A DNA stretch of 64,000 nucleotides from Gammaproteobacteria bacterium (GTDB taxonomy: Bacteria > Pseudomonadota > Gammaproteobacteria > Steroidobacterales > UBA11654), in contig JAQWQE010000029.1 of the NCBI GenBank assembly GCA_029244925.1, forward strand, positions 24,749 to 88,748, written 5' to 3'. Within the stretch, counting starts at the first letter, position 1; the number at the start of each line of letters is the position of its first letter. Shown one piece after another: positions 38,126 to 54,703 of the stretch. The position numbers and the translations under genes are program-made. Under the pieces are notes generated by a model. The model was not told the origin of the DNA and ran no database searches. It saw only the letters and a list, made by a program, of their open reading frames with translations.

Positions 38126-38893
38126 ATGAAAATAGCGAGTTGGAATGTCAATGGAATTAGGGCACGAATAGAGCATGTTACTGCATGGATAAAATCCAAT
38201 CAGCCAGATGTTTTAGCGCTGCAAGAAACAAAAGTAATGGATAATATGTTTCCATTCGAAGCCTTTACATCACTGGGCTATGAAGCAATGATCTACGGCC
38301 AAAAATCATACAATGGTGTAGCCCTATTATCAAAAAAATCCCCTAAAGAATGTACTAGAGGCATTGATGATTTTGTAGATGAACAGACTAGAGTAATCTC
38401 TGGAATCTATGAGGGGGTTAAGATTATTGATGTTTACATACCTAATGGTCAAAGCGTTGGTTCTGAGAAATTTGAATATAAAATGAGGTGGTTGACAAAC
38501 TTACATCGTTACTTAGAGGCATCAATAAAAAGAAATGAACAAATTGTTGTCCTTGGTGATTTTAACATAGCGCCTCAAGATATAGATGTTCATGACCCTA
38601 TAGAGTGGAAAGGTAAAGTCTTATGCAGTGATGAGGAAAGAGAATGGCTGCATAAAATAGAGAAAATAGGTTTTGTTGATAGTTTTAGATTGTTTAATCA
38701 AGATGAGGGTTTATTTAGTTGGTGGGATTACAGGATGGCTTCTTATAGAAGAAAAATGGGCATGCGAATAGATTTGATACTTATCTCTGAAGCATTAAGA
38801 AAAAATTGCATCAAAAGTTATATTGATGAAACCCCTAGGGCTTTAGAAAAACCATCTGATCACACGCCCGTGTTAATAGAGCTCAGGTTATAA
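38126..38893 (+). CDS. xthA: Exodeoxyribonuclease III
   Basis: 255 aa. SWNVNGIRAR, LQETK and C-terminal SDHTPV. Confidence 0.93.
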   Translation: MKIASWNVNGIRARIEHVTAWIKSNQPDVLALQETKVMDNMFPFEAFTSLGYEAMIYGQKSYNGVALLSKKSPKECTRGIDDFVDEQTRVISGIYEGVKIIDVYIPNGQSVGSEKFEYKMRWLTNLHRYLEASIKRNEQIVVLGDFNIAPQDIDVHDPIEWKGKVLCSDEEREWLHKIEKIGFVDSFRLFNQDEGLFSWWDYRMASYRRKMGMRIDLILISEALRKNCIKSYIDETPRALEKPSDHTPVLIELRL

Positions 38894-40048
38894 GACCGTT
38901 TTTTGCTCCATCAAGTCCTTTATTAAACCGTCATCATATCCAATCCCTTTCAGTACACTCCTTGTATTTTGACCTCTAGTGGGCGCGGTATGTTTATAGA
39001 TTGGAGTAGAATTAGAAAATTTTAATGGGCTGCCCGCTTGCCTCTCTGTCTCCTTAGCGCCCTTTGGAACATTGACTACCATTTGTCTATTTTGTAATTG
39101 TTGGCTCTCTATAGCTTCAGACAAACTTAGAACTGGTTCTACACAAGCATCAATATTTTCAAAAAGAGTAACGCACTCTTCAAAAGTTTTACTCCCGAAA
39201 GCGCTAGTCAAACCCTGATGGATTTTATCTTGTGCTTCTGGAGTTAAATAATCTAGATTATATAGGTCCATTCGACCCATTGCTTCGCAGAGTTCTTTAA
39301 AAAATTTTGGCTCAAGACTGCCGACAGAAAAATACTTCCCTTCCTTAGTTTTATAGTAATTATAAAAACCACCTCCATTGAGATTATTAGACTGAAAAGA
39401 CGCTTCATTATCATTTACAAGATAGTCAGCTGCATGAATTGAGTTAAGAGCAAAACTTGCATCAAGCATACTGATGTCAATATGTTGTCCAATGTTTCGA
39501 CTTTGCCTCTCAATGATGGCGGCTAAAATTCCTGTAACAGCATGCATAGAACCGCCCGCTAGGTCAGCTATTTGTATGCCAGATAAAGTAGGTCCTTCGC
39601 TTGTTGTACCACTATAACTACTAACCCCACTAAGAGATAAATAATTAATATCATGCCCTGCTTTTTGTTTTAAAGGGCCGGTCTGCCCATAACCTGTTAT
39701 GGAGCAGTAAATTAATTTAGAATTAAGTTGAGACAATGATTTATAACTCAACCCCAATCGATCCATAACGCCTGGCCTGAATTGCTCAACAAGAACATCA
39801 TAATCTTCAATTAATTTTTCAATAATAGCCCTCCCCTTGGGATCCTTAAGATTAATAGCAATAGATTTTTTGGATCTACCCAAATAAGACCTCATAGCTG
39901 CGCCACGATGCTTAAAAGATACATCGCCCTCGCTTACCGGCTCAACCCATAAAACGTCAGCCCCCATGTCAGCAAGGGTCATGGTTGCATAAGGTCCCGG
40001 AAGAAGTGTTGAAAAATCAAGAATTTTTATTTTATCTAAAGGGGCCAT
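38888..40048 (-). CDS. CoA-transferase family III protein (alpha-methylacyl-CoA racemase-like)
   Basis: 386 aa. KILDFSTLLPGPYATMTLADMGADV and GHDINYLSLSG, as recalled for the AMACR/CaiB-BaiF family. Confidence 0.8.
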   Translation of the reverse strand: MAPLDKIKILDFSTLLPGPYATMTLADMGADVLWVEPVSEGDVSFKHRGAAMRSYLGRSKKSIAINLKDPKGRAIIEKLIEDYDVLVEQFRPGVMDRLGLSYKSLSQLNSKLIYCSITGYGQTGPLKQKAGHDINYLSLSGVSSYSGTTSEGPTLSGIQIADLAGGSMHAVTGILAAIIERQSRNIGQHIDISMLDASFALNSIHAADYLVNDNEASFQSNNLNGGGFYNYYKTKEGKYFSVGSLEPKFFKELCEAMGRMDLYNLDYLTPEAQDKIHQGLTSAFGSKTFEECVTLFENIDACVEPVLSLSEAIESQQLQNRQMVVNVPKGAKETERQAGSPLKFSNSTPIYKHTAPTRGQNTRSVLKGIGYDDGLIKDLMEQKTVL

Positions 40049-40052
40049 ATCA

Positions 40053-41318
40053 CTATAGAGAAAGGTGGATTTTTTCTAGTTGTTGAACAACAAGGTCTAC
40101 GTGTTCTATTTGAAAGGTCATTGGTGGTCTTAGTTTGATCACATTGTTTTGTGGCCCTGTCTGGCCTACTAATATGCCATTATTCATTAACCGCTCCACA
40201 GTTAATGTGGTTGTTGCTTTATCTTTCATTTCGACGCCAATAAACAGGCCGCTACCTCGTATATCTTTTATGACTTCACTAGAGCCAATAGCTCTGCTTA
40301 GCTCTTTTTGAAAATAGTTACCTACTATTTTTGCATGCTCAACCAAGCCCTTGTCTTGAATGCATTGCATCACTGCCAGGCCAGCGGCACATGCAACAGG
40401 ATTCCCTCCAAATGTATTAAAGTAACCATAGTCATGGTTAAAGCTATCAGCAATTTCTCGTGTTGTTATTACAGCAGAAATAGGGTGTCCATTGCCCATA
40501 GGCTTACCCAATGTGACAATATCTGGAACAACTTCGGAATGCTCAAAGCCCCACATAAAATCGCCTGTTCTGCCAAAGCCTGACTGCACTTCATCTGCAA
40601 TGGTTAGCCCTCCCAATTCCTTAACCAAGGCATATAGTGTTGCTAGGTACTCTTTTTTAGGAAGATAAATGCCCTCACTGCTAAAAATATTATCTGCAAT
40701 AAAAGCTGCTAAAGAATGGCCATGAGATTTCAATATTTTAACCTGAGCCGTTGTATTTTGGATATATTGTTCTTCATGCTCTGGGTAAGCTTCTGGACCA
40801 GGTATGGTTGCAATCCAACTTTCTCTTTGTGTTTCACTACAATCCTCTGGGCTCATCTGAAAAACTGCTGTGGTATTACCGTGGTATGCATTCTCAGTAA
40901 CCAAACACCCTGTTTGGCCCGTATAATTTCTTGCAATTTGTAAAGCTAAATCATTTGCTTCACTGCCGCTGCAACAAAAATAACAAACGTTTAAACCTTC
41001 TGGCATGGACTCTATTATTTTCTCAGCTAAATCAACAATGTTGTGATGCAAATAACGAGTGTTGGTATTAAGCAATGCTGCTTGTTGGGCGATAGCGTCC
41101 ACTACTTCTGAATTGCAGTGCCCAACGTGAGCAACATTGTTATAAACATCTAAATATTTTTTCCCTGCTTCATCAAACAACCAAACATCATCGCCTTTTA
41201 TGATGTGTAGAGGTTCTTTGTAAAAATATTGATCTCCATTTCCCAAATAACTCATGCGCTTTTTAAAAACTGCTTGTTTATTAACTTCTTCGCTCATTTT
41301 TAAAACCCTAATCAACAA
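40053..41318 (-). CDS. Class III PLP enzyme of the AGXT2L (phospho-lyase) type
   Basis: 421 aa with a TTG start; the alternative ATG at 41297 gives [50 protein letters not shown] and ENAYHG closely resemble recalled motifs of ethanolamine-phosphate / 5-phosphohydroxylysine phospho-lyases. Confidence 0.7.
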
Positions 41319-42369
41319 CAGGTGTTAAGTTGTTTTTTAGTGTAGTCGACACACCTTCCAGGTCTGACTTTAATAGCGCTTCTAGAGTTTTCCACATTCG
41401 TTGTATTCCGCCTAAAATATACTCTTGGTTATCGGGGTGATCTATCGCTCTCCACTCACAAATGATTGCCGACATCGCAACCCTATTCATAATTAGCCCA
41501 GGTAATAAGTCGAGCTCTTTGGGCAACAGTGGGTATGCTTGATGGTAGCCGGACAATAAGCTTGAAGTGCCTTTAAAAATATCATTCATAGCAGCGGTTT
41601 GATAAGCGGCAGCCACTGCCAAATCATTAATTAAAGGTGCCTCCACCATGTCGCCAAAATCTATCATTCCGGCAACCTCTGATGATCCTGATGACACCAA
41701 TATGACATTATCAGAGTTCATGTCATTGTGAATTACCTGGGTCCGGAGCTTTGCCAATGGTTTCTCAACATGGTCTGTAAAATATAATAAAGCTTTGTGT
41801 GCCATACTTTTATTATGCTTATTTTTAATAAATGGAAGCAATTCATAAAGAAGGTGTGTGTGGCTCATGTCCCATAGTAATTTATGCTTTGATGAAGAAT
41901 GTTTAAAGTTTTTTAAGCCTTTCCCTAGGCTGCCTAAAAAAGAACCCATGTTTGAATACAGTTTTTGAATGTTTTTTGGGGAGTTTATGTCGCCCAGTGG
42001 TTTTCCATCTACAAAAGAAACCAGTCGAACTAAAAATTTTTGGTTATGCATTTTTACAGCCACAATGTCACTGCCTGATAAATTGCATTTAACCCTAGGT
42101 AGAGATAATTCAGAGTTATTAGAAAGGTGCTTAAGGGCTTTGTTTTGAAAATCTAAGGTATTAAAACTTTCCTTGCTGTTGGCTATTTTTAATACAAAAC
42201 GTTCATTGTTTGAACTTTCTATATAAAAGTTTTGATCTCTTTCACTGGCTAAATATTTAATGTTTTTTGGGCTATCAACCCATTGTTCGGCAATCTTTTC
42301 GGCATCACATATGCTTAAATTAGGGGCTGGGTTTTCCAAAACAGGGAATGCAAAAACAGGGCTCTTCAT
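41308..42369 (-). CDS. APH/homoserine-kinase-II-type phosphotransferase (hydroxylysine-kinase-like)
   Basis: 353 aa. Catalytic loop HNDMNSDNVIL and Mg-binding IDFGDM. Confidence 0.75.
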   Translation of the reverse strand: MKSPVFAFPVLENPAPNLSICDAEKIAEQWVDSPKNIKYLASERDQNFYIESSNNERFVLKIANSKESFNTLDFQNKALKHLSNNSELSLPRVKCNLSGSDIVAVKMHNQKFLVRLVSFVDGKPLGDINSPKNIQKLYSNMGSFLGSLGKGLKNFKHSSSKHKLLWDMSHTHLLYELLPFIKNKHNKSMAHKALLYFTDHVEKPLAKLRTQVIHNDMNSDNVILVSSGSSEVAGMIDFGDMVEAPLINDLAVAAAYQTAAMNDIFKGTSSLLSGYHQAYPLLPKELDLLPGLIMNRVAMSAIICEWRAIDHPDNQEYILGGIQRMWKTLEALLKSDLEGVSTTLKNNLTPVVD

Positions 42370-42372
42370 CTC

Positions 42373-43206
42373 TTAGACCTCGCTCCAAATGGATTCAATC
42401 CAGGACTTTATAAGCAACGCCTCTTCCCATCTGTCCGATAACTCCAGTTGATTTTGATCAGTAATAGCATATGCAGGAGGCCCTAGTTCGCATAAAAAAA
42501 CCAATGTGGCATCGTCATCATTCCTGGCCTTCCATTTTTTAATGCCTTCTTTCCACCAATTTTTAAAGACATTAACCCATACTTGGTGCTGAGGAAACGA
42601 TAACTGTATTTGAATTTGGCCTCTGGCTGCCACCCGGCCTTGAAAACACTCTGCCCGATCCAAAATAGTATTAATATAACCCTGATCTCTTTCATTAATA
42701 GGAGTCCACATCTCTCTATCCACTACAAAATGAGAAAGATCGGCACATAATTTCATCTCAGGTACCGCATCAATCAACTGCAGCGTGTAATACAAATCAT
42801 TTAAAATACTATCCCTATGTGTTTCAAACAGTATGTCTACTTCGGCTTTATCGGCATCCTCCATCCATCGCTTCACAACTGGAATGCCATCTCTATAATC
42901 AATGGGCATAACCCCTCCAATAACATTAACAAAACAAGCATTGAACTCTTTTGCCAAACCAAGGACGGGGTTAAGGTCATCAAGGTGGTAGGGAAATGCA
43001 TTAACCATGCATTCAAGCTCATTGCTTTTAAACAAGGCTTGCATTGATTTAAACTGCTCCACTTCATCAGCCGTTAGATCAATGCAAACTCCATCAAAAC
43101 CGCCTGCTTTAATTTTTTCAAACTTTGACTCATTTGAGGGCTCCTCATCTATTGGGTGTCTTTGCTCCATACCCCAAAGTGACTGATATATTTTTAGGTG
43201 TTGCAT
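42373..43206 (-). CDS. Xylose-isomerase-like TIM-barrel protein (sugar phosphate isomerase/epimerase family)
   Basis: 277 aa. The family call rests on overall pattern only (…FETH…, …CADLSHF…), so it is moderately supported. Confidence 0.55.
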   Translation of the reverse strand: MQHLKIYQSLWGMEQRHPIDEEPSNESKFEKIKAGGFDGVCIDLTADEVEQFKSMQALFKSNELECMVNAFPYHLDDLNPVLGLAKEFNACFVNVIGGVMPIDYRDGIPVVKRWMEDADKAEVDILFETHRDSILNDLYYTLQLIDAVPEMKLCADLSHFVVDREMWTPINERDQGYINTILDRAECFQGRVAARGQIQIQLSFPQHQVWVNVFKNWWKEGIKKWKARNDDDATLVFLCELGPPAYAITDQNQLELSDRWEEALLIKSWIESIWSEV

Positions 43207-43209
43207 TCT

Positions 43210-44238
43210 TTAGTCTGAAAAATAATGAGCCAATGTGGATTTTTGCAATATAACATCAACCATGGCTCTATCTTTAATTGCATTGTATTCATTACATAAA
43301 GCTAAAAAAGATTTTTTATGATAACGGTTAGGGGAGCCAATACGGTGTTCAAAAAGCTTGTTCTTTATCGTCACAGATAAAGAGTCATGCCCATCAATCA
43401 CTGCTTGATTGTTTGCTTGCAGCCATGGCATAAAAATACCCCCTATGTCTTGGGTCAAAATTGGCATTAATGTTTCCTCCAAGTTTTTCCAAGGCTCAAA
43501 ATCACCCCTCATTTCTGGGTTTTCCATTAAATGAATCCATTTTAGCGTTTTAGGATAGCTCAACTCAATAATCTTTTTTAAAGTTGGGTCTGACCATGCT
43601 TGATAGAGTTGCCCATAAATTCCAAAATCAGCAATAGAGGGTTTTAAGCCAAAAAAATAAGGTCTTGCCTGAAGGTGGGTCTCACTGTGTTTTAAAAAAT
43701 CTAAAAAAGACTCTTCGATTTGGCCCCCTGTATTTTTATTAGAACTTGTGACCCAGAGTCTTGCTATTTGACGCTTACGAATAGCTGAGGCAATTTTCTT
43801 ATGGGCGAAGCGATTAATAATAGGAATTATTTTGACCCAAGTGGGTAAAAATGGATCAGTAATCCTAAGCGCCGCATCCCATTGATCTTCCTTGTAACTC
43901 CAACGCGAATGAAACATCGGTTTGACCAACCACTCGTCAGCATACTCTTCCAACAGTCTTGCTATAAATGCTGTGTGTTCCTCTTTTGGAATTATAGAGC
44001 GCTCTTGAAATTGTTTTTCCATTAACTGAATAATTGGGGTTGAGTCTTGTATGGCTTTTTTTTCAGGGGTAATGACCAGTGGAACTATGGCTATTTTGGC
44101 ATGCTTCTTAAACTCGCTATTTGTTTTATGACTCCTTTCGATCCAGCTGTGCGGAATCCTTTTATATCTAAAATAAGATCGAACCTTTACAGAGTAAGGT
44201 GATGGTTCGTTGCCATACACAAGGTATTTTTCAGTCAC
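43210..44238 (-). CDS. Glutathione S-transferase-like protein
   Basis: 342 aa. N-terminal thioredoxin-like GST_N pattern YGNEPSPYSVKVRSYFRYKRIPH and a long helical C-terminal region. Confidence 0.55.
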   Translation of the reverse strand: MTEKYLVYGNEPSPYSVKVRSYFRYKRIPHSWIERSHKTNSEFKKHAKIAIVPLVITPEKKAIQDSTPIIQLMEKQFQERSIIPKEEHTAFIARLLEEYADEWLVKPMFHSRWSYKEDQWDAALRITDPFLPTWVKIIPIINRFAHKKIASAIRKRQIARLWVTSSNKNTGGQIEESFLDFLKHSETHLQARPYFFGLKPSIADFGIYGQLYQAWSDPTLKKIIELSYPKTLKWIHLMENPEMRGDFEPWKNLEETLMPILTQDIGGIFMPWLQANNQAVIDGHDSLSVTIKNKLFEHRIGSPNRYHKKSFLALCNEYNAIKDRAMVDVILQKSTLAHYFSD

Positions 44239-45518
44239 TACTTCAAGCCTCCAATACTGGGTAACACTTGTTGAATAACGGCATTTAAGCCTATTTCGCT
44301 CCGTTGATCATCTTTAAAATAACTGTTCCATACAACAACGTAGTCTTTGTTTGGGTTTGTGATTAAACCTTGTCCAGCCCAGCCCCCTTTAAAGAGGTCA
44401 CCATTCTCATAAACCATATCCCACTGATAAATATTGTATCTTAACTCTTTGGGTATTTTGTTGGCGCCCTCCCTGCGAATCAAATGGGGTCTTCCTTGGT
44501 TTAATAGGTATGCGATGTGATCTTCTGAAATGATGCGTTGGTCAGATACAGTTGAATAACTGGGTGTAAACAATAGGCCAAACCTGGCTAAGTCTTTTAG
44601 TGTTGTTAACAGTCCGCCATGCATAACAGGAATGCCATTCCTAGGAGCAAAAATGGCAGCATCACTCTCGGTCCCTATTTTTGTCCATATCATCTCACTC
44701 AAGGCATCTTGAAGTTGCATGCCGGTTATCTTTTCAACCAGCCAACCTAAAACGAATGTATTGACTCCGGAGTAGCTATAAACCGTTCCTTGCTCGTAAA
44801 GAGAGCCAAAATTCATATTCGCTATAAACTCATAAGGGTTATTAGGAGATGATTCATCCCAATAACCATCTCCCACAGCCATTGAATAAAGGTAATAACA
44901 AGATTTTTTATTTGTATAGTTATCTGGACAGTTAATGCCTGTCGCCATATCAAGAATATTGTTAATAGTGATGTTTTTAAAATCAGAATTTTTAAGTTCC
45001 GGTAGGTAGAAGTCAATGGGCAAACTAATATCAATCTTATTTTCTGCCTCAAGAATTGCTATCAAGCTGGATACAGTCACTTTTGTGACGGACCAGTGAA
45101 CTGGTTTTTCATATGGTTTCATTCTGGGGTAGTGCTCAAAAACAACCTTCCCTTTATGCAAAATAACTACCCCCATAGCTGTGGATTGTTCGCTATCAAG
45201 AAACGCTTTAAAACCCATGCTTCCTGCTTTAGTTTTGATCTGTAATGCATCAATATCGCTATTAAGATTGCTTTCTAGTTGTTTGACTGCACCCTTCCTA
45301 TAAACCGTGACTGTTGGAAAAATCTTATTGAGATTTTTAAAATTCCAAAGCATGTCTTTTCCATTAACCGTCCACCAAATATCGTCTTTACGCAATCGCT
45401 CTATTTGGTTTATGGTTTCATCAACACTTGGGTTCACAGAAATCACTTGCGCATGTGCATTAAAAATAAAAACCAGACACAGAAGGCAGAGGCTTTTGTT
45501 TTTAAATGTAACCGTCAT
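44238..45518 (-). CDS. Exported serine hydrolase (beta-lactamase / D-aminopeptidase-like)
   Basis: 426 aa. Signal peptide ending AHA-Q and an S-x-x-K motif (HWSVTKV). Confidence 0.8.
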   Translation of the reverse strand: MTVTFKNKSLCLLCLVFIFNAHAQVISVNPSVDETINQIERLRKDDIWWTVNGKDMLWNFKNLNKIFPTVTVYRKGAVKQLESNLNSDIDALQIKTKAGSMGFKAFLDSEQSTAMGVVILHKGKVVFEHYPRMKPYEKPVHWSVTKVTVSSLIAILEAENKIDISLPIDFYLPELKNSDFKNITINNILDMATGINCPDNYTNKKSCYYLYSMAVGDGYWDESSPNNPYEFIANMNFGSLYEQGTVYSYSGVNTFVLGWLVEKITGMQLQDALSEMIWTKIGTESDAAIFAPRNGIPVMHGGLLTTLKDLARFGLLFTPSYSTVSDQRIISEDHIAYLLNQGRPHLIRREGANKIPKELRYNIYQWDMVYENGDLFKGGWAGQGLITNPNKDYVVVWNSYFKDDQRSEIGLNAVIQQVLPSIGGLK

Positions 45519-45621
45519 TTTAAAATACTCATTTTTATCGCTTTAGCTGTTCATCAAAGAAATTGAATTGTAGACTGTTTATTGTATATCGGAATAACAA
45601 AAAATAGCATAAGGTGCATAA

Positions 45622-46419
45622 TTGATTCGTTCATTAAGTAGAGGGCTAGACATCATTGCAATTTTTAATAAAAGCGATAGTGTTAGCGCATCTGAGATCT
45701 CAAAAAAGTTAAAAATGCCTAGATCAACCGTTTATAGAATTCTTGAAACCCTAATTGAAAAAGGGTTTATCTATCAACACAGTTCTGATCGAAGGTTTAG
45801 GCTGACCCAAAAAGTTAGTTCGCTAAGTGATGGTTATACTGATGAAGATCACATGGCAAATATCAGTCGCAAATTTTTAGAGGAGTTTACCCAAGAACAC
45901 GATTGGCCTGTAACATTAGCGACAATTTCAGGTATTGATATTGTTGTTAGAGAGAATACAGACCGCCAAAGTCCTTTTGCATCAGAGCAATTTAGCATTG
46001 GTTATAGAATGCCAATCTTAGAAACAGCCTCAGGCCTATGCATGCTTGCCCATATGCCAACAAAAAGACAAAAACTCATACTAAAAACACTTGCGAAAAC
46101 AAACAACGACCCTAAAAAAATAGTTAACAATACTGCAGTTTTAGAGAAGAAGCTTGTAAAAATCTTAAACCAAGGTTTTTCGGTAAAAAATAGAGTCAGG
46201 CGTTTTGCCGACCTAACAGCAATATCTGTACCTATTATTACAGAAGAAGAGGCTGTACGTGGAGCATTAACTATTCGCTATTCAAGATCAGCAATTGCTT
46301 TGGAACAGGCGGTAGCAAAATTTGTTCCCAGTTTAATGAAAACCTCTCTAGAGATTGCCTCAAGAATCAACCTTCACATTAATAAGCAACAGTCTCTTAA
46401 CAATAAGGAGTCTTATTAA
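45622..46419 (+). CDS. IclR family transcriptional regulator
   Basis: 265 aa. TTG start preceded by AAGGTG, and an N-terminal wHTH ASEISKKLKMPRSTVYRILETLIEKGFI. Divergent from the hydrolase operon. Confidence 0.85.
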   Translation: MIRSLSRGLDIIAIFNKSDSVSASEISKKLKMPRSTVYRILETLIEKGFIYQHSSDRRFRLTQKVSSLSDGYTDEDHMANISRKFLEEFTQEHDWPVTLATISGIDIVVRENTDRQSPFASEQFSIGYRMPILETASGLCMLAHMPTKRQKLILKTLAKTNNDPKKIVNNTAVLEKKLVKILNQGFSVKNRVRRFADLTAISVPIITEEEAVRGALTIRYSRSAIALEQAVAKFVPSLMKTSLEIASRINLHINKQQSLNNKESY

Positions 46420-47327
46420 GGAGATCTTGGAATATGCTCTTGCTGGCATGTTGCATACCAATCGGTTAAATCGGACCTAGTCGTCCACCAAACTCCTTGG
46501 AGTTTTTGTGCTTCTTGAATGAACTCTTTTATGGCCCTAATTCGATAGGCTCGTCCGCTAACATGTGGGTGTAGACCAATATTCATAATCTTAGCGGTTG
46601 TTGCGCTCTCCTCATAAAGCACCGACATCTCCTCCAATAAAACATCTCTAAACTCATCCGTGGTGAGGCCTCTTCTTGTCAACAGAGTAAAATCATTAAT
46701 TTCATTATTGTATGGCACAGCTGTTATTTCTCCTGATGGCGTCTCAATCATATAAGGTTGATCATCATTCATCGTGTCGCAATAAAATTTAAGCCCGTTT
46801 CTAACCAAAATATCTGCGGTATTTAAAGTTCCCCTCAGAGATGAAGACAGCCAACCTTGTGGCTTGGTTCTTGTTGTTTCTTCAAACACTTTTAAAGTTC
46901 TTTTTATCAGCTCTTCTTCCTTTTCAGGATCATTATAAAAATTAGTTAGTAGCTCGCCTTGCTCAAAATTATGAGGTATGAGTTCACACCCTCTCTCCAT
47001 TGCAGCATCAACCATTTCTCGACGCCTATTACAGGTCTCAGCATTAATGGTGCAGCCAGGCTTTATGCCCAATTGATCAAATAATTCAAACAGCCTCCAA
47101 ACCCCTACTCTCTGTCCATACTCCCTCCACATATAATTGGGAAAATCTGGGACATTACCAGGAAGAAGGTCGGGTAGGATTGGTGGCCCGCCTGCGTAAT
47201 AGGGTTTATTTGTTTCTTTGATTAGGTTCCATGTTTCTAAATTAATTGTAATAATAATGGCAAGCTTTTTATTTTCTGGCCAAGAGAGCTTTCCTCTATT
47301 TACAATGGGTATGTATGGGTACTTCAT
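46416..47327 (-). CDS. Polysaccharide-deacetylase-fold protein (PuuE allantoinase-like)
   Basis: 303 aa. The C-terminal MNIGLHPHVSGRAYRIRAIKEFIQ...VWWTTRSDLTDWY resembles the recalled PuuE pattern (GLH.R..GrP.R...l..Fl....vW...r.dia.hW). Confidence 0.65.
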   Translation of the reverse strand: MKYPYIPIVNRGKLSWPENKKLAIIITINLETWNLIKETNKPYYAGGPPILPDLLPGNVPDFPNYMWREYGQRVGVWRLFELFDQLGIKPGCTINAETCNRRREMVDAAMERGCELIPHNFEQGELLTNFYNDPEKEEELIKRTLKVFEETTRTKPQGWLSSSLRGTLNTADILVRNGLKFYCDTMNDDQPYMIETPSGEITAVPYNNEINDFTLLTRRGLTTDEFRDVLLEEMSVLYEESATTAKIMNIGLHPHVSGRAYRIRAIKEFIQEAQKLQGVWWTTRSDLTDWYATCQQEHIPRSP

Positions 47328-47469
47328 TTTAAAAGGATGTCAGACACGACATAGCATTACAATAATAAAAACTAATCTTTCCCAAAATTGCTACAACTAA
47401 AAAAATAAAAAAAGCGTTATAGAAATAATTTAAGATAGAGTTAAAAAGACAATACGGGTTTGGTTATTT

Positions 47470-48879
47470 ATGAAAAGAAGAGATCTCTTAAAAACAACAC
47501 TAGCCGGTGGGGCTTTGCTTCCAATGAGCACAGACAGCCTTGCTGAAAAAGAACCTAAAACCACCTCTTTAAAAAACCATCAAAAAGGGGCGGAAATTCT
47601 TCGTGGAGGGCCCTTGGTTAACTTGGAGCGTGCTTATAAAGTTATGGCCGAAGAAAATCTTGATGGGCTTATAGTTACTCAACCAATAAACTTTTACTAC
47701 TTCACTGGTTACCATGATCATTTGGCAGTTCGGTATGATGCTCCAAGTTCTTTTGCCTTAATAACAAGGAATGAAAAACAGCCAATTAGCATCATTATGA
47801 ACCAGTTTATCTATTATTTTTGTGTCGCTGATAGTAATTTTAAATGGCCTTCTGATGTTTACCTTTTTACTGGATGGGATAAAAAAATAGTAGGAACAAA
47901 CCCTGATACCAAGCCATCAAATAAGGAGCCCAAAGCGAGTTCTCCTTTTATTTTTCAAGATAAAAAACAAATGCCTCAGAGTTATATTGAAAAGAATCGC
48001 TTAGAAAAGCTTGATATAGCGCTTGAGAACATTCCAGAAAGTGCTGATGCTAGATGGGCGTTGACTAAAGCAATTTGTAATAACGGTTTAGAAAAGTCGA
48101 AAATTGGTATTGACCACCCTGTAATAAATAGGGTTATTGATACCTCCGGCCTTGATATAAAGACGGTAGATGGTGACCATGCGCTTCGTAAAATAAGGTT
48201 GATTAAAACGCCTCGTGAAATTGAATTAATGCGTATCACAGCGGAAAATAATGCGACCGCTGCACTTAATGCAGTCAGAGCTGTTAGGGCTGGAGCAAAT
48301 CATTTTGAATTAAAATCATTGTTTTTTAGTGAATGTGCAAAACTTGGAAATATGCCTCTTTTGATGCAAATTGACAGTGTAAACTCAGAAGTTTTTAATG
48401 CTGAACTAAAAGACGGAGATGCTTTTGCAATTGATGGTGTGTCTCAGGCCTTTCACTACACTGGAGATTATGGGAGAACAGTTTTTCTAGGTGAGCCTAG
48501 CCGCTCAATGAAAAAAGCTACAGATGCTATAGCAATTGGATGGGACGCTGTAAGAGAAAAACTAAAACCAGGCCTTCGTTATTCAGAGATTAGAACAATA
48601 GGTCGTGATGCAATAAAAAAATCAGGTTACAACTTTAACGTTGCTGTGACACCACATAGTGTAGGCCTGTCTCATACAGATGAGCCTGGAAGAGATGGAC
48701 CTGGGTCTTATTGGGTCAAGGATGACTTGGTATTAGAAGAAAATATGATTATCAGTGTAGATATGCCCGTGTTACACACGGGCATTGGTGGTTCAGCTCA
48801 CCTTGAAGATCTCACACTAATTACCAAAGATGGCAGTGAACAAATAAACGATATTGGCGACCGTATCGTTATTGTTTGA
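47470..48879 (+). CDS. Tat-exported M24 (creatinase/prolidase-type) metallopeptidase
   Basis: 469 aa. Twin-arginine signal MKRRDLLKTTLAGGALLP, and a C-terminal pita-bread domain with candidate metal ligands (DAFAIDGV, PHSVGLSH, LEENMI, HLEDL). Confidence 0.8.
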   Translation: MKRRDLLKTTLAGGALLPMSTDSLAEKEPKTTSLKNHQKGAEILRGGPLVNLERAYKVMAEENLDGLIVTQPINFYYFTGYHDHLAVRYDAPSSFALITRNEKQPISIIMNQFIYYFCVADSNFKWPSDVYLFTGWDKKIVGTNPDTKPSNKEPKASSPFIFQDKKQMPQSYIEKNRLEKLDIALENIPESADARWALTKAICNNGLEKSKIGIDHPVINRVIDTSGLDIKTVDGDHALRKIRLIKTPREIELMRITAENNATAALNAVRAVRAGANHFELKSLFFSECAKLGNMPLLMQIDSVNSEVFNAELKDGDAFAIDGVSQAFHYTGDYGRTVFLGEPSRSMKKATDAIAIGWDAVREKLKPGLRYSEIRTIGRDAIKKSGYNFNVAVTPHSVGLSHTDEPGRDGPGSYWVKDDLVLEENMIISVDMPVLHTGIGGSAHLEDLTLITKDGSEQINDIGDRIVIV

Positions 48880-48885
48880 ATGTTA

Positions 48886-51255
48886 TTAGAAGCTGTATGT
48901 GGCTTTCACTCCATAATACCTTAAATCAGGAAGACCGCCGGTTAGCACTCTATTCACACTTGGTGGCAAATAGGCAAAATCGATTAAGAACTGATAGTTG
49001 GTAAAAGTTTTATCATTCGTGAGATTCTCTCCAACTAACTCTATACGAAGATTATCTTTTATAATGCCATATCTCATATTTACTCGATTACTAGATCCTG
49101 TTTCAGTGACATTTGCATCGGTGGCATAACTACTGCCAGTGTGAAGAAGATCAGCTCTTAGATACCACTCAGTTCCGTTACTCATTTGCCCATCAAGAGT
49201 TCCTGAGACAGATCGTTGAGTCTTGGGGTTTCTTTGCTTTCTTTTCCCCATTCCACTAATGTCTGATGTTCCCAGAAGAACAGTGCAATCAGCGCAATCT
49301 GTAAGTGTTTTTATTTCAGAATCATTATTGCTTAGCGTTGCCTCTAGTTTAAAGTTGTCTGAAACTGCCCAAGCACCCTCTATTTCATAGCCTGAAAGGT
49401 CAATTTCTCCGCCTGTAGCTGTACCGCCATAAAAGACATCGCCTACAAAAGCGCCTGCTGCCTGTTGTGCTCTCCAGTCTCCTTGATAAACCGCTGCTTG
49501 CATCCAAGCTCTTCCGTCCATTAGTGAGGCTTTGATTCCGAACTCAGTCATTTCTAACTCTTCTTCTTCAATCTCTTTATAAATCCCTGACAAGGCGAGC
49601 TGATCAAGAACAGGTTGTGACTCCCCAAATAAATTAACATTGAAGCCGCCAGGTCTTGTTCCTTCTCCGTAGCTTGCATAAAGTGTTACGTCCTCATTCA
49701 TTTGATAATCAAGAGCAATCCTTGGTGTAGTGCTATTAAAAGTACCTGATACAAACTCTGCTCCGCTTGATCTTGCTTCTTGAACATCATCTTTTTGTCT
49801 TCTGCCTTCTATATTGACAGTTAGATCATCTGTAATATCGTATTCAATTGCGGCGAAAAACCCTGTTGTATCAATATCAAAAACATTGCCAAGGCTTAAT
49901 GATCTGACTGAACTAAAAATATGAAAACCACTGGTTCTCTTTCCCTCAAAGCTAAATTTACTTAGTCCCAATAACCATCTTAATCTTTGGTCTTGTGGAG
50001 AACTTACTCTGATTTCTTGGCTAAAATCTTTTAAATCTCTTCCATTAAGAAGTGAGACATCTCTGAGTGAATCTGGTACATCTGTATTATGTCTTCTATC
50101 AAGATCATCTAATGCCATCCATCGGTTATCATTAGAGGCTGTTATAGAGGTAATACTAATACCACTATCAAGCGACCAATTCATAACCAAACTAGCTTGG
50201 CTAGCCTCTCTAGCAAAACCAAAACCATGAAGAAATGGAACATCAGTAATGGTATCTATGCTGAGGCCTGCTGTAGGGATACCTGTTAATAGGCTTACCT
50301 TATTAGGACTCATTTGAGCATCATATTGAATGTTTGCATCTTGAGGAAACGGTGCTACGCCACAAAACCAATTATTGGTACCGTTTCTTGCTGCCAATGA
50401 TGAGTTAGGTAAATTGCAATTGAAAAGCGCTTCTCCATTGTTAACGCCATAACCAAAAGCTGCGCCCGGACCATCATCGTCTTCCCAGGTGTGATAGCGA
50501 AGCTTTGCATTAAAATTATCGCTTGGTTCAAAATACAAGGTTCCTGCAAAGCTAACTGTCTGTCTTGCTCCAAGTTTTAATGTTGGTGTATTAGCTGCTG
50601 TGTATTGGCCTTCTGTATCTTGTGAGCTAATCGCTATTCGATAGGCTGTTGTATCATTAATAGGGCCTTCTGTAGAGAACCCAAGGTTTGTTGTTCCATA
50701 CTTGCCTACCTCAGCAACTATTTTGCTTTTTGATTCTTGGCCAGGCGTTTTTGTCACATAATTAACAGCCCCTGAAAGAGTTGCTCTACCAAAGTAAGCG
50801 CTTTGCGGGCCTCTAACAATCTCTATTCGTTCTGCGTCTTCAAGACCAGCAATTACACTGCCGTGCATTGGTGCGCCATCAACAAAAACTGTTGCGGCTT
50901 GTTGGTGGTCGTTTTCTTGACTGATATGCATGCCTCTAATGACAAGAATTCTATTGGATCTGTCCGCTCTTCCTACAGAGTGTTCTGCAAAATGAAAGCC
51001 TGGTGTAAATGAAATAATATCTTTGAATTCGCCTATTCCTTTGTCCTCAATGTCATTAGCGCTTAGTGCTGTGATTGCTAGTGGGACATCAAGTATATTC
51101 TCTTCTCTTTTTCTTGCGGTAACTACAATCTCTTCAACCAAAGACGCGCCGTCTTGTGCGATTGTGGTTTCAGAGGTGGTTAAAGTTATACAAAAAGTAG
51201 TTACTAATACTGCTAAATATCCAATTAATGAGTTTTTTAACTTCGTTTTAAACAT
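48886..51255 (-). CDS. TonB-dependent receptor
   Basis: 789 aa. Signal peptide, plug region EEIVVTARKREENILDVPLAITAL, a Gly/Tyr-rich beta-barrel, and a terminal ...ATYSF. Confidence 0.9.
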   Translation of the reverse strand: MFKTKLKNSLIGYLAVLVTTFCITLTTSETTIAQDGASLVEEIVVTARKREENILDVPLAITALSANDIEDKGIGEFKDIISFTPGFHFAEHSVGRADRSNRILVIRGMHISQENDHQQAATVFVDGAPMHGSVIAGLEDAERIEIVRGPQSAYFGRATLSGAVNYVTKTPGQESKSKIVAEVGKYGTTNLGFSTEGPINDTTAYRIAISSQDTEGQYTAANTPTLKLGARQTVSFAGTLYFEPSDNFNAKLRYHTWEDDDGPGAAFGYGVNNGEALFNCNLPNSSLAARNGTNNWFCGVAPFPQDANIQYDAQMSPNKVSLLTGIPTAGLSIDTITDVPFLHGFGFAREASQASLVMNWSLDSGISITSITASNDNRWMALDDLDRRHNTDVPDSLRDVSLLNGRDLKDFSQEIRVSSPQDQRLRWLLGLSKFSFEGKRTSGFHIFSSVRSLSLGNVFDIDTTGFFAAIEYDITDDLTVNIEGRRQKDDVQEARSSGAEFVSGTFNSTTPRIALDYQMNEDVTLYASYGEGTRPGGFNVNLFGESQPVLDQLALSGIYKEIEEEELEMTEFGIKASLMDGRAWMQAAVYQGDWRAQQAAGAFVGDVFYGGTATGGEIDLSGYEIEGAWAVSDNFKLEATLSNNDSEIKTLTDCADCTVLLGTSDISGMGKRKQRNPKTQRSVSGTLDGQMSNGTEWYLRADLLHTGSSYATDANVTETGSSNRVNMRYGIIKDNLRIELVGENLTNDKTFTNYQFLIDFAYLPPSVNRVLTGGLPDLRYYGVKATYSF

Positions 51256-51401
51256 TACAATTCCCCGTTGTTAGTTTGTTGAATAAGGATAGCCTCTATA
51301 GGTAGAGCTCACAAGATAAAAAAAATATGTCCTAATAGTGGACAACCGATAATATTAGAAAAAACTAAAAATTTTGATGTTTGATTTTAGTGCTTTTATC
51401 T

Positions 51402-52643
51402 TTACTTTGTTTTAAGGGTTGGGTAGCTCCCAAGTGACAACATTAAAATACCGCTGATAGCAGACATCATGGCAACAGTTTTTAACACCAATGTATAATT
51501 ACCAAAATAATCAAAAGCCATGCCAAATGCTGCTGGAGCCAAACCCGCACCAATAGAAAAGAATACATAGAGTGCTCCATAAAGTTTTCCATAATCATGG
51601 AGCCCAAAGTACCGGCTCACCAAGAAGGCCAATAAATCCAACTCTGCTCCAGCTGCCAAGCCAACGACAATCATAGCGAGTGAAACCATCGTTATTGAAG
51701 GCATTGCGGTGCTGAAAACATATATTGAAAAAATAGGTGCTGTTAAAAATATTGCTGCTATCAATGGAGCCCAAAAATGATCCACCAAGAAGCCCACGAC
51801 CAGCCTTCCAGAAATCACACTAAGACCTATAAGCCCAGCATATTGTGCTGCTTGCTGTAGTGTTTTTCCCTGATCAATAAGCATTGGAACACTGTTGGTA
51901 ATCAGGCCTGCTATAGCGGCCGCAGCCAAAACCAAAGCGATGCCTATAGCCCAAAAATGATAGCTCATAATTGCCGCCCTAAATGAAATTGACTGCTGTG
52001 TGTTTGTTTCTTTTTGTTCCTTATTTATGCTCTCTTTCGAGTTATTGTTTTTGGACTCAAAAAACAGAAAATAAACGCCCGGGAATCCAATTAATGTAAT
52101 GGTAAGAGCTAGTAGTAAATAGGCTTTTTGCCAACCAAACTCGGTAATCAACCAAGTAACATAAGTTGGAGCAAGGGTTGCAGCAAATCCTGTGCCTGCC
52201 AATGTTATGCCTAATGCTATTCCACGATGTTTATCAAACCAACCGTTTACAACTCGCGTCCAAGTGACAGGCAAAGTGCCTGCCGCCAAAACTGACATGA
52301 TGCTCCATGCAAGATAGTAAGCAGATAGCGATGTGGACAAGAAGTAAAAACTACCCATTGACAACCCATATAATGGAATGGAAATAAGCGCCACTCGACG
52401 AGCTCCAAAACGATCAACCAAAACACCAACAATGGGGGCTGTAATAATGGCCATTAAAATCATAATGCTAACGCCTAGCTGAACATCGCCTCTACTCCAC
52501 CCTGTATTGCTAGAAACACTCACAACAAAAGCGCCATGAGTATAAAAACTAATTGATGACAGGCCACAACCAGCGCCAATCATAGCTCCCATAAGTGGTT
52601 TGAGGCCTGAGAAAAATTCATTATTTTGTGTCATTACTCTCAT
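51402..52643 (-). CDS. MFS transporter
   Basis: 413 aa with about 12 hydrophobic segments and the MFS loop motif GVLVDRFGARR. Confidence 0.85.
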   Translation of the reverse strand: MRVMTQNNEFFSGLKPLMGAMIGAGCGLSSISFYTHGAFVVSVSSNTGWSRGDVQLGVSIMILMAIITAPIVGVLVDRFGARRVALISIPLYGLSMGSFYFLSTSLSAYYLAWSIMSVLAAGTLPVTWTRVVNGWFDKHRGIALGITLAGTGFAATLAPTYVTWLITEFGWQKAYLLLALTITLIGFPGVYFLFFESKNNNSKESINKEQKETNTQQSISFRAAIMSYHFWAIGIALVLAAAAIAGLITNSVPMLIDQGKTLQQAAQYAGLIGLSVISGRLVVGFLVDHFWAPLIAAIFLTAPIFSIYVFSTAMPSITMVSLAMIVVGLAAGAELDLLAFLVSRYFGLHDYGKLYGALYVFFSIGAGLAPAAFGMAFDYFGNYTLVLKTVAMMSAISGILMLSLGSYPTLKTK

Positions 52644-53390
52644 TTAATGTTCAGACATAAGGCTGCCAAACCCTTTTAGTTGATCATTGATATTATTGCT
52701 TCTCAGCGCATGCCAATATGTCGCTGTGTTAATCGCTATGACTGGTTTTGCGAATTCAATTTCAAACTCTTCAACCAAACGCGCCATGGGGAGGTTTGTT
52801 CCAACCTGAACCAGTGCATCAACGCCTTTATTGTTGATTTCCTCCATTTGTTGATGAATCACATTTTTTGGAACCTCGGCAATTTGTGTCCAGCTGGGAC
52901 ATTCTAAGCAAGTGTCTGCAACCACATCAAATCCCATTTCTTCAAAGTAGCGGCGTACCTGTTCATTGGCAGCTGGGAAATAAGGGGATAAAAACCCTAT
53001 TCTTTTCACTCCGCTAAACGCCTTCAACGCTGCTGCGGTTGCATGAGAGCCAATACTTACAGACAGGTTAGATCTGTTTTCAACTTGTTGCTGAAAATCA
53101 TCAGCGCCCTTAACACCGCCATAAAAAGTAATGGCGGACATTCCCATTACCAAATAACTTGGTGAGCAGGTCATTACACTGTCTACCGCATCCAAGACGT
53201 TGCTTGCTATAACAAGTGTTGCGTTCATAAATGATTCGTTGCTGACAGCATTTGCATTGGGGGTTAATATCCGACTGTAATGATTGGTTATCCCGTTAGG
53301 CCTCATGTCATCAAATTCTGGTTGAACAACCGTGTTTGTCGATGGCCCTAAAATGCCAAACAAACCTCTCCAACCCAATATATCGCTCAT
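52644..53390 (-). CDS. Asp/Glu/hydantoin-racemase superfamily protein (maleate isomerase / arylmalonate decarboxylase-like)
   Basis: 248 aa. N-terminus LFGILGPSTNTVVQPEF, and length and pattern typical of the family. Abuts the MFS start codon. Confidence 0.65.
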   Translation of the reverse strand: MSDILGWRGLFGILGPSTNTVVQPEFDDMRPNGITNHYSRILTPNANAVSNESFMNATLVIASNVLDAVDSVMTCSPSYLVMGMSAITFYGGVKGADDFQQQVENRSNLSVSIGSHATAAALKAFSGVKRIGFLSPYFPAANEQVRRYFEEMGFDVVADTCLECPSWTQIAEVPKNVIHQQMEEINNKGVDALVQVGTNLPMARLVEEFEIEFAKPVIAINTATYWHALRSNNINDQLKGFGSLMSEH

Positions 53391-54583
53391 ACTATGTCTC
53401 TCTCTCTTTCAATGCTGCTCGTCATTGATTGTTCTAACATATACGCTCTTCTTTTAGCTTTATTAGCGTGAATAACTCTCATTTCGTCCCACTGGGATTC
53501 AAAGCTTGTTTCGCCGCTTTCTTCTATCATTTTTTTATTTCTAATTGTCTGTCTTTGTATAAAGTCATTCATAACTGCACGCCTCTGCCTATCAAACTGT
53601 CCCAATAAACCTTTGTTGTGTCCATGGTTTATTATTAAACCTAGTTTTTGGGATAAATTCCAAGCATCATGCAGCCCACTATTCATACCTAAACCGCCCA
53701 ATGGGTTATTAAGGTGTGCCGCATCTCCTATAAGAAGGATGCGTTGATGCATCATTTTATCAACAACTCTTTGATGCACCCTATATATAGTTCTGTGTAT
53801 TGTTTCTACTTTTTTTGACTCCCCTAAAACCCTTTGAAAGACTTTGTTTATGTTTTTGTCGGATACAATGTCTGAGTCTTTTATGTCATTTTCAATGGGA
53901 ACTAAAATTCTCCAGGCCGAAGGAGCTTTTAATAAGACAAACCAATCTTTTGGGTCTGAAACATAGTTAACATAAGACAAATCATTAAAATAATTTTCTA
54001 TCTTCTCTTCTGTACTTAAGGTTAAAAACTTCTCTTTGTAGGTGAACCCTGAGAAATCAATTCCCAGCTGTCGCCTTACAATGCTGTTGGCGCCATCAGC
54101 GCCTATCAAATACATTCCTTTATATGTTCTAATGCCATCAGGTGTGTTCACCTCAACACTAGCGCCTGCATCATCTTGACTAACTATTAAAACTTCATGA
54201 TTAAATAAGATTTCTGCATGAGGGTGTTCTTCTAGTTTCTCAGCTAACATTCTTGCAAACTTATATTGTTCGCACTGAAGCCTAAAAGGAAACTCCAGTG
54301 TGTCCTTTAACTCGCCAAGGTTAAAGTCTAATACCTCTTTTGAGGATCGAATGCGATATTGAAAAACAGGAGCTTTTAAACCTTGATTTATCAAGGGTTT
54401 TGCCAAACCCAGTTGCTCTAAATACGACAAAGTAGGTGGATGAAATGTAGAGGCTCGCATATCAGTTTCGCAATGCTCGGCCGACTCTAAAACCAAAACG
54501 TCTATGCCTTGCTCGGCCAGACAAAAGGCAACAAAAGTGCCCACAGGCCCAGCTCCAGCAATAATAATTTGACCTTTCATCAT
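53387..54583 (-). CDS. FAD-dependent aromatic-ring-type monooxygenase
   Basis: 398 aa. IIIAGAGPVGTF (GxGxxG) and LLIGDAAHLNNPLGGLGMNSGLHDAWNL. Confidence 0.85.
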   Translation of the reverse strand: MMKGQIIIAGAGPVGTFVAFCLAEQGIDVLVLESAEHCETDMRASTFHPPTLSYLEQLGLAKPLINQGLKAPVFQYRIRSSKEVLDFNLGELKDTLEFPFRLQCEQYKFARMLAEKLEEHPHAEILFNHEVLIVSQDDAGASVEVNTPDGIRTYKGMYLIGADGANSIVRRQLGIDFSGFTYKEKFLTLSTEEKIENYFNDLSYVNYVSDPKDWFVLLKAPSAWRILVPIENDIKDSDIVSDKNINKVFQRVLGESKKVETIHRTIYRVHQRVVDKMMHQRILLIGDAAHLNNPLGGLGMNSGLHDAWNLSQKLGLIINHGHNKGLLGQFDRQRRAVMNDFIQRQTIRNKKMIEESGETSFESQWDEMRVIHANKAKRRAYMLEQSMTSSIERERDIV

Positions 54584-54689
54584 GGTATTGGTTAATTTTT
54601 ATGGCAAAACTTAAGTCGTTATAATAATGCCTTTTAAGTTATAGCATGTAATTAGAAATTAATAGTTCTTCTTAAATATTATAGATATG

Positions 54690-54703
54690 TTGATACGTAT
54701 CAA
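54690..54703. promoter_or_regulatory. Perfect 14-bp palindrome upstream of the monooxygenase operon (candidate operator)
   Basis: TTGATACGTATCAA is its own reverse complement. It lies 107 bp upstream of the monooxygenase ATG (54583). Confidence 0.3.

Follow-up and report, generated by a model that had tools for sequence, protein, structure and literature searches.

Organization of the locus

The subject of this report is a group of six closely packed genes on the minus strand of a 64,000-nucleotide stretch of DNA (the window) from a gammaproteobacterial assembly of the Steroidobacterales lineage UBA11654 (contig JAQWQE010000029.1). In the order of reading, these genes encode an exported serine hydrolase, a glutathione S-transferase (GST)-fold protein, a divergent triose-phosphate isomerase (TIM) barrel protein, an APH-fold kinase, a putative pyridoxal phosphate (PLP)-dependent phospho-lyase, and an enzyme resembling family III CoA-transferases and α-methylacyl-CoA racemases, called here the CoA enzyme. 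The first five genes form a cluster that is conserved in other genomes, where a gene of the alkaline ceramidase family commonly lies directly upstream. The chances are about even that this operon serves the catabolism of an amide-linked amino alcohol. The features of the locus are listed in Table 1.

The spacing of the six genes is very tight. The CoA enzyme and lyase genes are separated by 4 nucleotides (nt), the kinase and TIM genes by 3 nt and the TIM and GST genes also by 3 nt, and the GST and hydrolase genes overlap by 1 nt. The gap between the lyase and kinase genes is 10 nt if the lyase starts at the ATG at 41297, and becomes an overlap of 11 nt with the TTG at 41318; the ATG start gives a protein of 414 residues, the same product as in public gene calls. 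At the 3' end the exodeoxyribonuclease gene xthA converges on the CoA enzyme gene with an overlap of 6 nt, and at the 5' end a gene for an IclR-family regulator diverges from the hydrolase gene across a spacer of exactly 103 bp. The close packing of the six minus-strand genes and the distance to the divergent IclR gene had been claimed in an initial annotation made from the sequence alone, and both were confirmed. The six family labels given there also survived profile searches, together with searches against the PDB and fold searches. The NCBI annotation of the window's own proteins contains generic names only. In a 90%-identity protein cluster, the window's kinase of 353 residues is listed together with members of 414 residues named class III aminotransferase, which is probably an artefact of clustering or gene calling at the kinase/lyase junction.

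A sharp change in base composition next to xthA (about 41% GC against 30%) had also been proposed, and it disappears on direct measurement. The GC content of the six genes is 38.8%, while the window mean is 37.7% (standard deviation 2.8% in 1-kb windows); the values for xthA and for the first 5 kb of the window are 35.7% and 35.5%. The idea of a foreign GC island was rejected on this ground. GC at third codon positions differs modestly, being 0.32-0.38 in the five core genes and 0.27-0.30 in topA and xthA. When the ceramidase-family gene is included with the core genes the range is 0.32-0.41, higher than in topA, xthA and the TonB-receptor genes (0.27-0.30), with a similar overall GC. An Rfam scan of the window gave no matches, and scans for promoters and terminators performed no better than on shuffled sequence.

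Table 1. Genes and features at the locus, with window coordinates and the evidence for each assignment
Feature	Position	Strand	Basis
xthA (exodeoxyribonuclease III)	38126..38893	+	TIGR00195, 311 bits, over cut-off
CoA enzyme (family III CoA-transferase/α-methylacyl-CoA-racemase-like)	38888..40048	-	PF02515, E 1e-93, full length
Putative PLP phospho-lyase, ETNPPL/PHYKPL (AGXT2L) type	40053..41297 (ORF to TTG 41318)	-	PF00202, E 3e-82, full length
APH-fold HYKK/AGPHD1-like kinase	41308..42369	-	PF01636, E 2e-20
Divergent xylose-isomerase-like TIM barrel	42373..43206	-	PF01261 in homologues; AlphaFold/Foldseek
GST-fold protein	43210..44238	-	GST_N_3 and GST_C_2 matches
Exported NylB-like serine hydrolase	44238..45518	-	PF00144, E 2e-23
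Divergent intergenic region, 103 bp	45519..45621		Presumed promoter and operator of hydrolase operon and iclR
IclR-family regulator (MhpR/PcaR-like)	45622..46419	+	HTH_IclR and IclR_C
Lineage-specific block between ceramidase-family gene and operon	46416..55564		Pfam and NCBIfam matches
Putative alkaline-ceramidase/CREST membrane amidase	55602..56549	-	PF05875, 53.5 bits (cut-off 32.5)

Conservation of the gene cluster

Gene order was compared over 83 loci. These were gathered by means of the TIM protein as anchor, partly from public metagenomes and partly from a set with a single genome for each species, and were scored by tblastn and all-against-all clustering of open reading frames. The order hydrolase-GST-TIM-kinase-lyase is shared by 12 species-level genomes and three metagenome contigs, with a convergent xthA after the lyase gene in complete loci. 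The junctions within this core range from overlaps of 8 nt to gaps of about 10 nt, while the identity of the proteins falls to 42-58%. Conservation is tightest in the TIM and GST proteins, with 67-89% identity for TIM. The convergent xthA gene follows the lyase gene in the complete loci of this arrangement, called type A (L001-L003, L010-L014, L019 and L056), and marks the 3' boundary of the cluster. The initial annotation had treated six genes and the IclR regulator as the unit; the five-gene core is far more widespread than this unit, and the full set with the CoA enzyme and IclR genes was found only in the window and in the loci of its two closest relatives, L007 and L008.

In 8 species-level genomes and three metagenome contigs a PF05875 gene of the ceramidase family lies directly upstream of the cluster. 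It abuts the hydrolase gene in L001-L003, L009-L014 and L016, and the GST gene in L056. In L019 the same slot is occupied by an exported M20 amidohydrolase, preceded by genes for an acyl-CoA synthetase and a short-chain dehydrogenase/reductase (SDR), and a thiolase gene lies between the lyase gene and xthA. Locus L017, with the same gene order and two unannotated upstream genes, probably has the same upstream arrangement. Because the M20 enzyme takes the ceramidase slot in the L019/L017 lineage, the upstream partner is always an amidase of some family, and enzymes acting on acyl chains gather around the cluster. The order and spacing of the five genes, together with an upstream slot always filled by an amidase, are hard to explain otherwise than by functional coupling.

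A pairing of the TIM and kinase genes alone, suggested by their adjacency on Woeseia contigs, was also considered as the conserved core, and was dropped when BLASTP showed the kinase on those contigs to be unrelated to the kinase of the window. Some of the relatives are labelled Woeseia or Woeseiaceae, and proteins of the host lineage recur on many ocean metagenome contigs. In the literature that was searched, which took in ceramidases in connection with SAR86, there is no description of this gene combination; the initial annotation did not recognise it as a described pathway either.

Hydrolases and upstream amidases

The nearest relative of known structure of the exported hydrolase is the 6-aminohexanoate-dimer hydrolase NylB (E 2e-30). 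The nucleophile motif S143-V-T-K146 (SxxK) is invariant in 13 orthologues, and a signal peptide ending in AHA|QV can be read off the N-terminal sequence. This β-lactamase-fold enzyme could act as an amidase or as an esterase.

The ceramidase-family protein of the window belongs, by its profile match and motifs, to the alkaline ceramidase/CREST superfamily, and would be an integral-membrane zinc amidase. The residues of its presumed active site, S110-x3-H114-x10-D125 and H291-x3-H295, are invariant in 12 orthologues. All five residues of the active site of human ACER3 (S77, H81, D92, H217 and H221; PMC9436119) are present with identical spacing. At least six hydrophobic segments are found, as in a multi-pass membrane protein. 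A sequence search gave no usable PDB match for this protein, and no characterised bacterial member of PF05875 was found in the searched literature. In the window this gene, ancestrally the first of the cluster, now lies 10 kb upstream of the operon, on the same strand.

The M20 amidohydrolase of L019 matches TIGR01891, the N-acyl-L-amino-acid amidohydrolase/carboxypeptidase group, with 332 bits. The earlier proposal that an amide- or ester-linked compound is cleaved in the periplasm gains support from the similarity of the exported hydrolase to the amidase NylB, and the conserved upstream amidase adds weight to it. The idea of an amide substrate in particular is strengthened because the conserved upstream partner, which the initial annotation had missed, is a ceramidase-family or M20 amidase.

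Kinase and phospho-lyase

By its sequence the PLP enzyme is a member of the phospho-lyase subfamily and not a generic class III aminotransferase. Its best PDB matches are the phospholyase of A. aurescens (5g4i, E 2e-100) and human ETNPPL (6tor, E 2e-99), with 45-48% identity, while the best match to a true aminotransferase reaches only 3e-48. The lysine motif GKPMGNGHP is located at residue 265. The enzymes ETNPPL and PHYKPL eliminate phosphate and ammonia from phosphoethanolamine and phosphohydroxylysine, and phospho-amino-alcohols are the only known substrates of this subfamily (PMC8154272).

The kinase has, as judged from its sequence, an APH fold with the full set of catalytic motifs, and belongs to the hydroxylysine-kinase-like group. 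The ATP lysine K61, the catalytic loop H214-x-D216-x4-N221 and the magnesium site D237-F-G are invariant in 12 orthologues. A phmmer search at an E-value of 1e-3 gave no match of the kinase to any PDB chain. The kinase and the lyase match two parts of the same fused kinase-lyase family of NCBIfam, PRK06148: the kinase corresponds to its N-terminal third (236 bits) and the lyase to its C-terminal half (477 bits). A homologue with 39% identity to the kinase is called hydroxylysine kinase by a JGI source. However, another homologue at about 38% identity is found in a methionine-salvage-like neighbourhood, and the specificity for 5-hydroxylysine is for this reason not transferable to the kinase of the window. 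The previously suggested phosphorylation and deamination of an amino alcohol by these two enzymes is supported by the assignment of an HYKK-type kinase and an AGXT2L-type lyase.

The same two genes also occur without the rest of the cluster. At the locus of a distant kinase homologue (L087) the kinase is paired with the lyase only. On megaplasmids of Rhizobiaceae a kinase-lyase pair, with 35% (kinase) and 45% (lyase) identity to the proteins of the window, adjoins genes for an ATP-binding cassette (ABC) transporter and an SDR (Sinorhizobium L092:1-8263 and Agrobacterium L093:1-8269), with a GntR regulator in L093. The kinase-lyase pair is a portable module. Homologues of the lyase are present in 387 plasmid records, including 42 from Klebsiella.

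TIM barrel and GST-fold protein

The AlphaFold model of the TIM protein has a pLDDT of 89, and the top 40 Foldseek matches in the PDB all belong to the xylose-isomerase-like superfamily. The best of these are UlaE and L-ribulose/D-allulose 3-epimerases, with a TM score of about 0.6 and a sequence identity of 11-14%. The residues E128, D156, H207 and E240 are invariant and could plausibly form a metal site. The protein itself has no Pfam or NCBIfam match at E 0.01, although its homologues carry PF01261, and the family profile gave no meaningful sequence match in the PDB. With this low identity and no family match, it could not be placed in a characterised subfamily, that is, ketose 3-epimerase, UlaE, FrlC or hydroxypyruvate isomerase.

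A search for the TIM family gave 3788 database matches, the best 120 of which are all at least 59% identical. The family is found in three unrelated, tight operon contexts. Besides the amidase-kinase-lyase cluster (15 loci), it occurs in a two-gene unit (34 loci, for example L004:8961-10858) with a membrane FA_desaturase-like protein as partner. The third context (31 loci, for example L046:2201-10846) is an operon for a GntE-like class III PLP enzyme, two CrtO/amine-oxidase-like flavoproteins, a GcvT-like protein and an ADP-forming acyl-CoA ligase, in which the TIM orthologues, with about 60% identity, are encoded by the last gene. This second operon with a PLP enzyme would also be amine-deaminating, which gives a hint of the role of the TIM protein.

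The GST-fold protein (AlphaFold pLDDT 92.6) has Foldseek matches to StyI, tau class GST, GTE1 and PTGES2, and carries a C-terminal extension of about 100 residues as an extra module. The motifs S13-P-Y-S16 and Q64-D-S-T67 are invariant across phyla. The domains, the N-terminal serine motif and the putative glutathione-binding motif are those expected of a cytosolic GST. In an unrelated metagenome-assembled genome (L091:4198-8011), a GST homologue with 48% identity follows an APH-fold kinase and a 562-residue Exo_endo_phos protein, with PlsB adjacent; this context is different, and again possibly related to lipids.

Proposed pathway and alternatives

The membership of these enzymes in their families is shown by homology and motifs, and their conserved co-location by gene order; the pathway that follows is inferred from both. 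In the first step, the two hydrolases of the cell envelope would strip acyl groups, bound as amides or esters or both, from a lipid-like or other N-acylated compound, leaving an amine adjacent to a hydroxyl-bearing carbon. The cytoplasmic kinase would then phosphorylate the hydroxyl of the freed amino alcohol. In the third step the lyase would eliminate phosphate by 1,2-elimination, with subsequent loss of ammonia, to give an aldehyde or ketone together with NH3 and Pi. The fourth step is the weakest: the TIM protein, as a metal-dependent enzyme, and the GST-fold protein might act on the carbonyl product or on a precursor. A reaction of the epimerase or ketol-isomerase type beside the new carbonyl would fit the TIM fold, but this is conjecture.

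The genes of the cluster and its surroundings give different indications of the substrate. The ceramidase family, the acyl-CoA enzymes of L019 and the AMACR-like protein of the window point to a lipid such as a sphingoid base, a ceramide or a hydroxylated ornithine or lysine lipid. The closest relatives of the lyase with known structures point to ethanolamine, and the HYKK-like kinase with the M20 enzyme points to a hydroxy amino acid. Within the amino alcohol pathway, our preferred substrate class is a sphingoid base or ceramide or a hydroxylated aminolipid head group, which is a tentative guess. In its most specific form the lipid pathway would be a route, so far undescribed, by which abundant uncultured marine Gammaproteobacteria degrade sphingoid bases, ceramides or hydroxylated aminolipids. 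The ceramidase homologue and the NylB-type hydrolase would deacylate the lipid, the HYKK-type kinase and class III phospho-lyase would replace sphingosine kinase and sphingosine-1-phosphate (S1P) lyase and release nitrogen and phosphorus as ammonia and phosphate, and the GST and TIM proteins, as two new enzyme families, would process the long-chain hydroxy-ketone so formed. This complete scheme is rather doubtful.

Several observations weigh against the catabolism of an amide-linked, and especially a lipid-derived, amino alcohol. All the genomes that were compared are metagenome-assembled or single-amplified genomes. The exported hydrolase is missing from L056, and in the window the ceramidase-family gene, being 10 kb away, may have lost its co-regulation with the operon. 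The cluster encodes neither an aldehyde dehydrogenase nor a dedicated transporter. The TIM family is not tied to kinase-lyase chemistry, because it also occurs in the desaturase-like operon, which has no kinase or lyase; and the neighbourhoods of distant GST homologues show no consistent context. Finally, the neighbours of the Rhizobiaceae pair are genes for an ABC transporter and an SDR, a context that favours small soluble amino alcohols over lipids.

Two such smaller substrates were considered. In a B12-independent ethanolamine route, the hydrolases would free ethanolamine from N-acylethanolamines or related head groups, and an ethanolamine kinase and a phosphoethanolamine phospho-lyase would convert it to acetaldehyde. 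This is the simplest chemistry, ethanolamine head groups are plentiful, and the two structures nearest to the lyase are deposited as phospholyase (5g4i) and ethanolamine-phosphate phospho-lyase (6tor). However, the kinase groups with the HYKK-like PRK06148 and not with choline/ethanolamine kinases, an acetaldehyde dehydrogenase is missing from the cluster, and the TIM and GST proteins, the very members that are most tightly conserved, would have no role. We consider this route unlikely.

The second possibility is equally improbable. Here hydrolases of the peptidase type would free 5-hydroxylysine (or 4-hydroxyornithine) from peptides or N-acyl amino acids, and the kinase and lyase would act as in animals to give aminoadipate (or glutamate) semialdehyde. 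The kinase-lyase pair would then be the bacterial counterpart of HYKK/PHYKPL, consistent with the name of the 39%-identical kinase homologue, and the TIGR01891 assignment of the M20 enzyme of L019 (332 bits) fits an N-acyl amino acid substrate. Membrane lipids that contain hydroxylysine are reported from bacteria (PMC4484230). On the other hand, neither an amino-acid transporter nor a semialdehyde dehydrogenase is encoded, the TIM and GST proteins are again left without a role, and the known substrates of the ceramidase family are amides of lipids and not of peptides (PMC9436119).

The genes might also form no single pathway, the cluster being the result of the packing of a streamlined genome, in which a kinase-lyase module lies next to unrelated detoxification or housekeeping enzymes. 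The three unrelated operon contexts of the TIM family, the variable neighbours of the GST homologues, and the tolerance of the window lineage for a 10-kb insertion and an added CoA enzyme agree with this. The five-gene order with near-zero spacing, kept in 12 species-level genomes at 42-58% protein identity, and the upstream slot always filled by some amidase family speak against it, and it seems slightly less likely than either of the two small-substrate routes.

An Amadori-compound or amino-sugar route was offered as the alternative in the initial annotation. In such a route the substrate would be a keto-sugar amine, with the TIM protein as its epimerase or isomerase, followed by phosphorylation by the APH-fold kinase and deamination by the PLP enzyme. 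This is very improbable: its sole point in favour is the fold of the TIM model, nearest to ketose 3-epimerases and UlaE, but the protein is only 11-14% identical to sugar epimerases and has no Pfam match of its own, FrlB/FrlD-type genes, sugar transporters and glycosidases are absent, the conserved partners are lipid and amide hydrolases, and the lyase subfamily is known for phospho-amino-alcohols only (PMC8154272).

Comparison with known systems

A kinase coupled with a phospho-lyase is a known route for the removal of nitrogen from amino alcohols. The kinase HYKK/AGPHD1 with PHYKPL (AGXT2L2), and also ETNPPL (AGXT2L1), were reportedly described by Veiga-da-Cunha et al. in 2012 (cited in PMC8154272). 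Like these systems, the operon pairs an APH-fold kinase with a class III PLP enzyme of the type that removes phosphate and ammonia from a phospho-amino-alcohol. Unlike them, the marine pair shares its operon with a GST-fold protein, a TIM barrel and two hydrolases of the envelope.

An (S)-1-amino-2-propanol kinase and lyase of the RMM microcompartment is said to have been reported by Mallette and Kimber in 2018 (cited in PMC6787980). The two-enzyme logic is the same in that system, in the Rhizobiaceae cluster (ABC transporter-SDR-GntR-kinase-lyase) and in the marine cluster, and the Rhizobiaceae pair is homologous to the marine one. Bacterial aminopropanol systems follow this kinase/phospho-lyase logic (PMC6787980). 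However, the RMM and Rhizobiaceae systems handle small soluble amines and include either shell proteins or an ABC transporter with a dehydrogenase; in the marine cluster their place is taken by amidases, a GST and a TIM barrel.

The order of deacylation, phosphorylation and PLP-dependent cleavage resembles eukaryotic sphingolipid breakdown by ceramidase, sphingosine kinase and S1P lyase, and the enzyme at the start is a PF05875 protein in both. The later enzymes are different. Sphingosine kinase has a diacylglycerol-kinase fold and S1P lyase performs a retro-aldol cleavage of a C-C bond, and they are not homologous to an APH-fold kinase and a class III lyase. The products of the marine enzymes would also differ, and a sphingoid substrate is hypothetical here.

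The exported hydrolase has the same fold and the conserved SxxK motif as NylB (EII), its best solved relative. It differs in being exported, and the similarity is only moderate. The substrate of NylB is man-made, and the natural substrate of the marine hydrolase must therefore be a different one. The TIM protein has the fold of UlaE and the ketose 3-epimerases (TM about 0.6) and a plausible Glu/Asp/His/Glu metal site, but the identity is low (11-14%) and its genomic partners are amine-catabolic and not sugar-catabolic.

To our knowledge, kinase and phospho-lyase pairs have been studied only for small soluble substrates, namely ethanolamine, aminopropanol and hydroxylysine. Here such a pair stands in a conserved operon with a bacterial alkaline-ceramidase homologue, a periplasmic amidase-type hydrolase and two further enzyme families. 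If the substrate is ethanolamine or hydroxylysine, the operon would be a modest extension of known biochemistry. If it is the head group of a membrane lipid (a sphingoid base, a ceramide or an ornithine- or lysine-type aminolipid), this would be a first way of breaking down such lipids, which contain nitrogen but no phosphorus; the searched literature describes no degradation route for them. In that case bacterial PF05875 proteins would gain a first function, and the TIM-barrel family, which has thousands of members, would gain one too.

Additions in the lineage of the window

The CoA enzyme and the IclR regulator are not part of the conserved cluster. The CoA enzyme has its best PDB matches to the M. 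tuberculosis racemase MCR (3.5e-55) and to SUGCT (9e-52). Like MCR, human AMACR and SUGCT it has the family III CoA-transferase fold, and the equivalents of MCR His126 and Asp156 are identical in it (AGHDINY and IADLAGG, in a phmmer alignment with 1x74). However, SUGCT scores nearly as well over the full length, and the protein falls below all NCBIfam equivalog cut-offs, so that the sequence is compatible with either racemase or CoA-transferase activity. Only the window, L007 and L008 have the gene beside the cluster, where it stands between the lyase gene and xthA. The final handling of the carbon skeleton as a CoA thioester, which the initial annotation had included as a third step, is consequently not part of the conserved pathway. 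In the lineage of the window the added AMACR-like enzyme would probably handle the released, perhaps branched, acyl chain.

The IclR protein matches PRK09834 with 164 bits and also the PcaR/PcaU/PobR subfamily, both under the cut-off. Its gene lies beside the cluster in the same three loci as the CoA enzyme gene, and no other type A locus has it. This synteny led us to reject IclR as the cluster's own conserved regulator. In evolutionary terms the notion of an IclR-linked six-gene operon also does not hold, since the IclR gene arrived with a block of about 10 kb that splits the ancestral junction between the ceramidase-family and hydrolase genes.

The divergent region of 103 bp between the hydrolase and IclR genes (45519-45621) has a column identity of 95% with the corresponding regions L007:7586-7688 and L008:7587-7689, while the proteins on its two sides are less conserved, with amino acid identities of 77-94% for the hydrolase and 76-83% for IclR. 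The strong conservation suggests a dense regulatory content. An inspection for inverted repeats and palindromes gave no clean example in this region. After the insertion of the block, the operon of the window would be read from this region, which it has in common with iclR.

The block (45622-55564) is 80-95% identical to the corresponding parts of L007 and L008, and is absent where the ceramidase-family gene abuts the hydrolase gene. It begins with the IclR gene and contains genes for a PuuE-like deacetylase, an M24/creatinase-like peptidase with a twin-arginine signal (MKRRDLLK), a TonB-dependent receptor, a transporter of the major facilitator superfamily, an Amdase/maleate-isomerase-like protein and an FAD monooxygenase, and two small genes, one APS-kinase-like and the other of no recognised family. 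The block resembles a catabolic island of its own, for the use of some nitrogenous or aromatic compound. The simplest history is that it was inserted between the ceramidase-family and hydrolase genes, and that the interval between the lyase gene and xthA gained the CoA enzyme gene.

Other genes in the window

Two further observations were made at some distance from the operon. A protein of 455 residues with three RidA/L-PSP domains (three stretches matching PF01042) is encoded at 61427-62794, at a distance of 16 kb from the operon. PLP lyases release reactive enamines and imines of a type that is quenched by RidA proteins. A membrane protein of the sterol-desaturase/fatty-acid-hydroxylase family (PF04116) is encoded at 59075-59908, directly upstream of an unannotated open reading frame of 210 residues (58440-59072). 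These two genes, located a few kb from the ceramidase-family gene, may represent another lipid-modifying pair.

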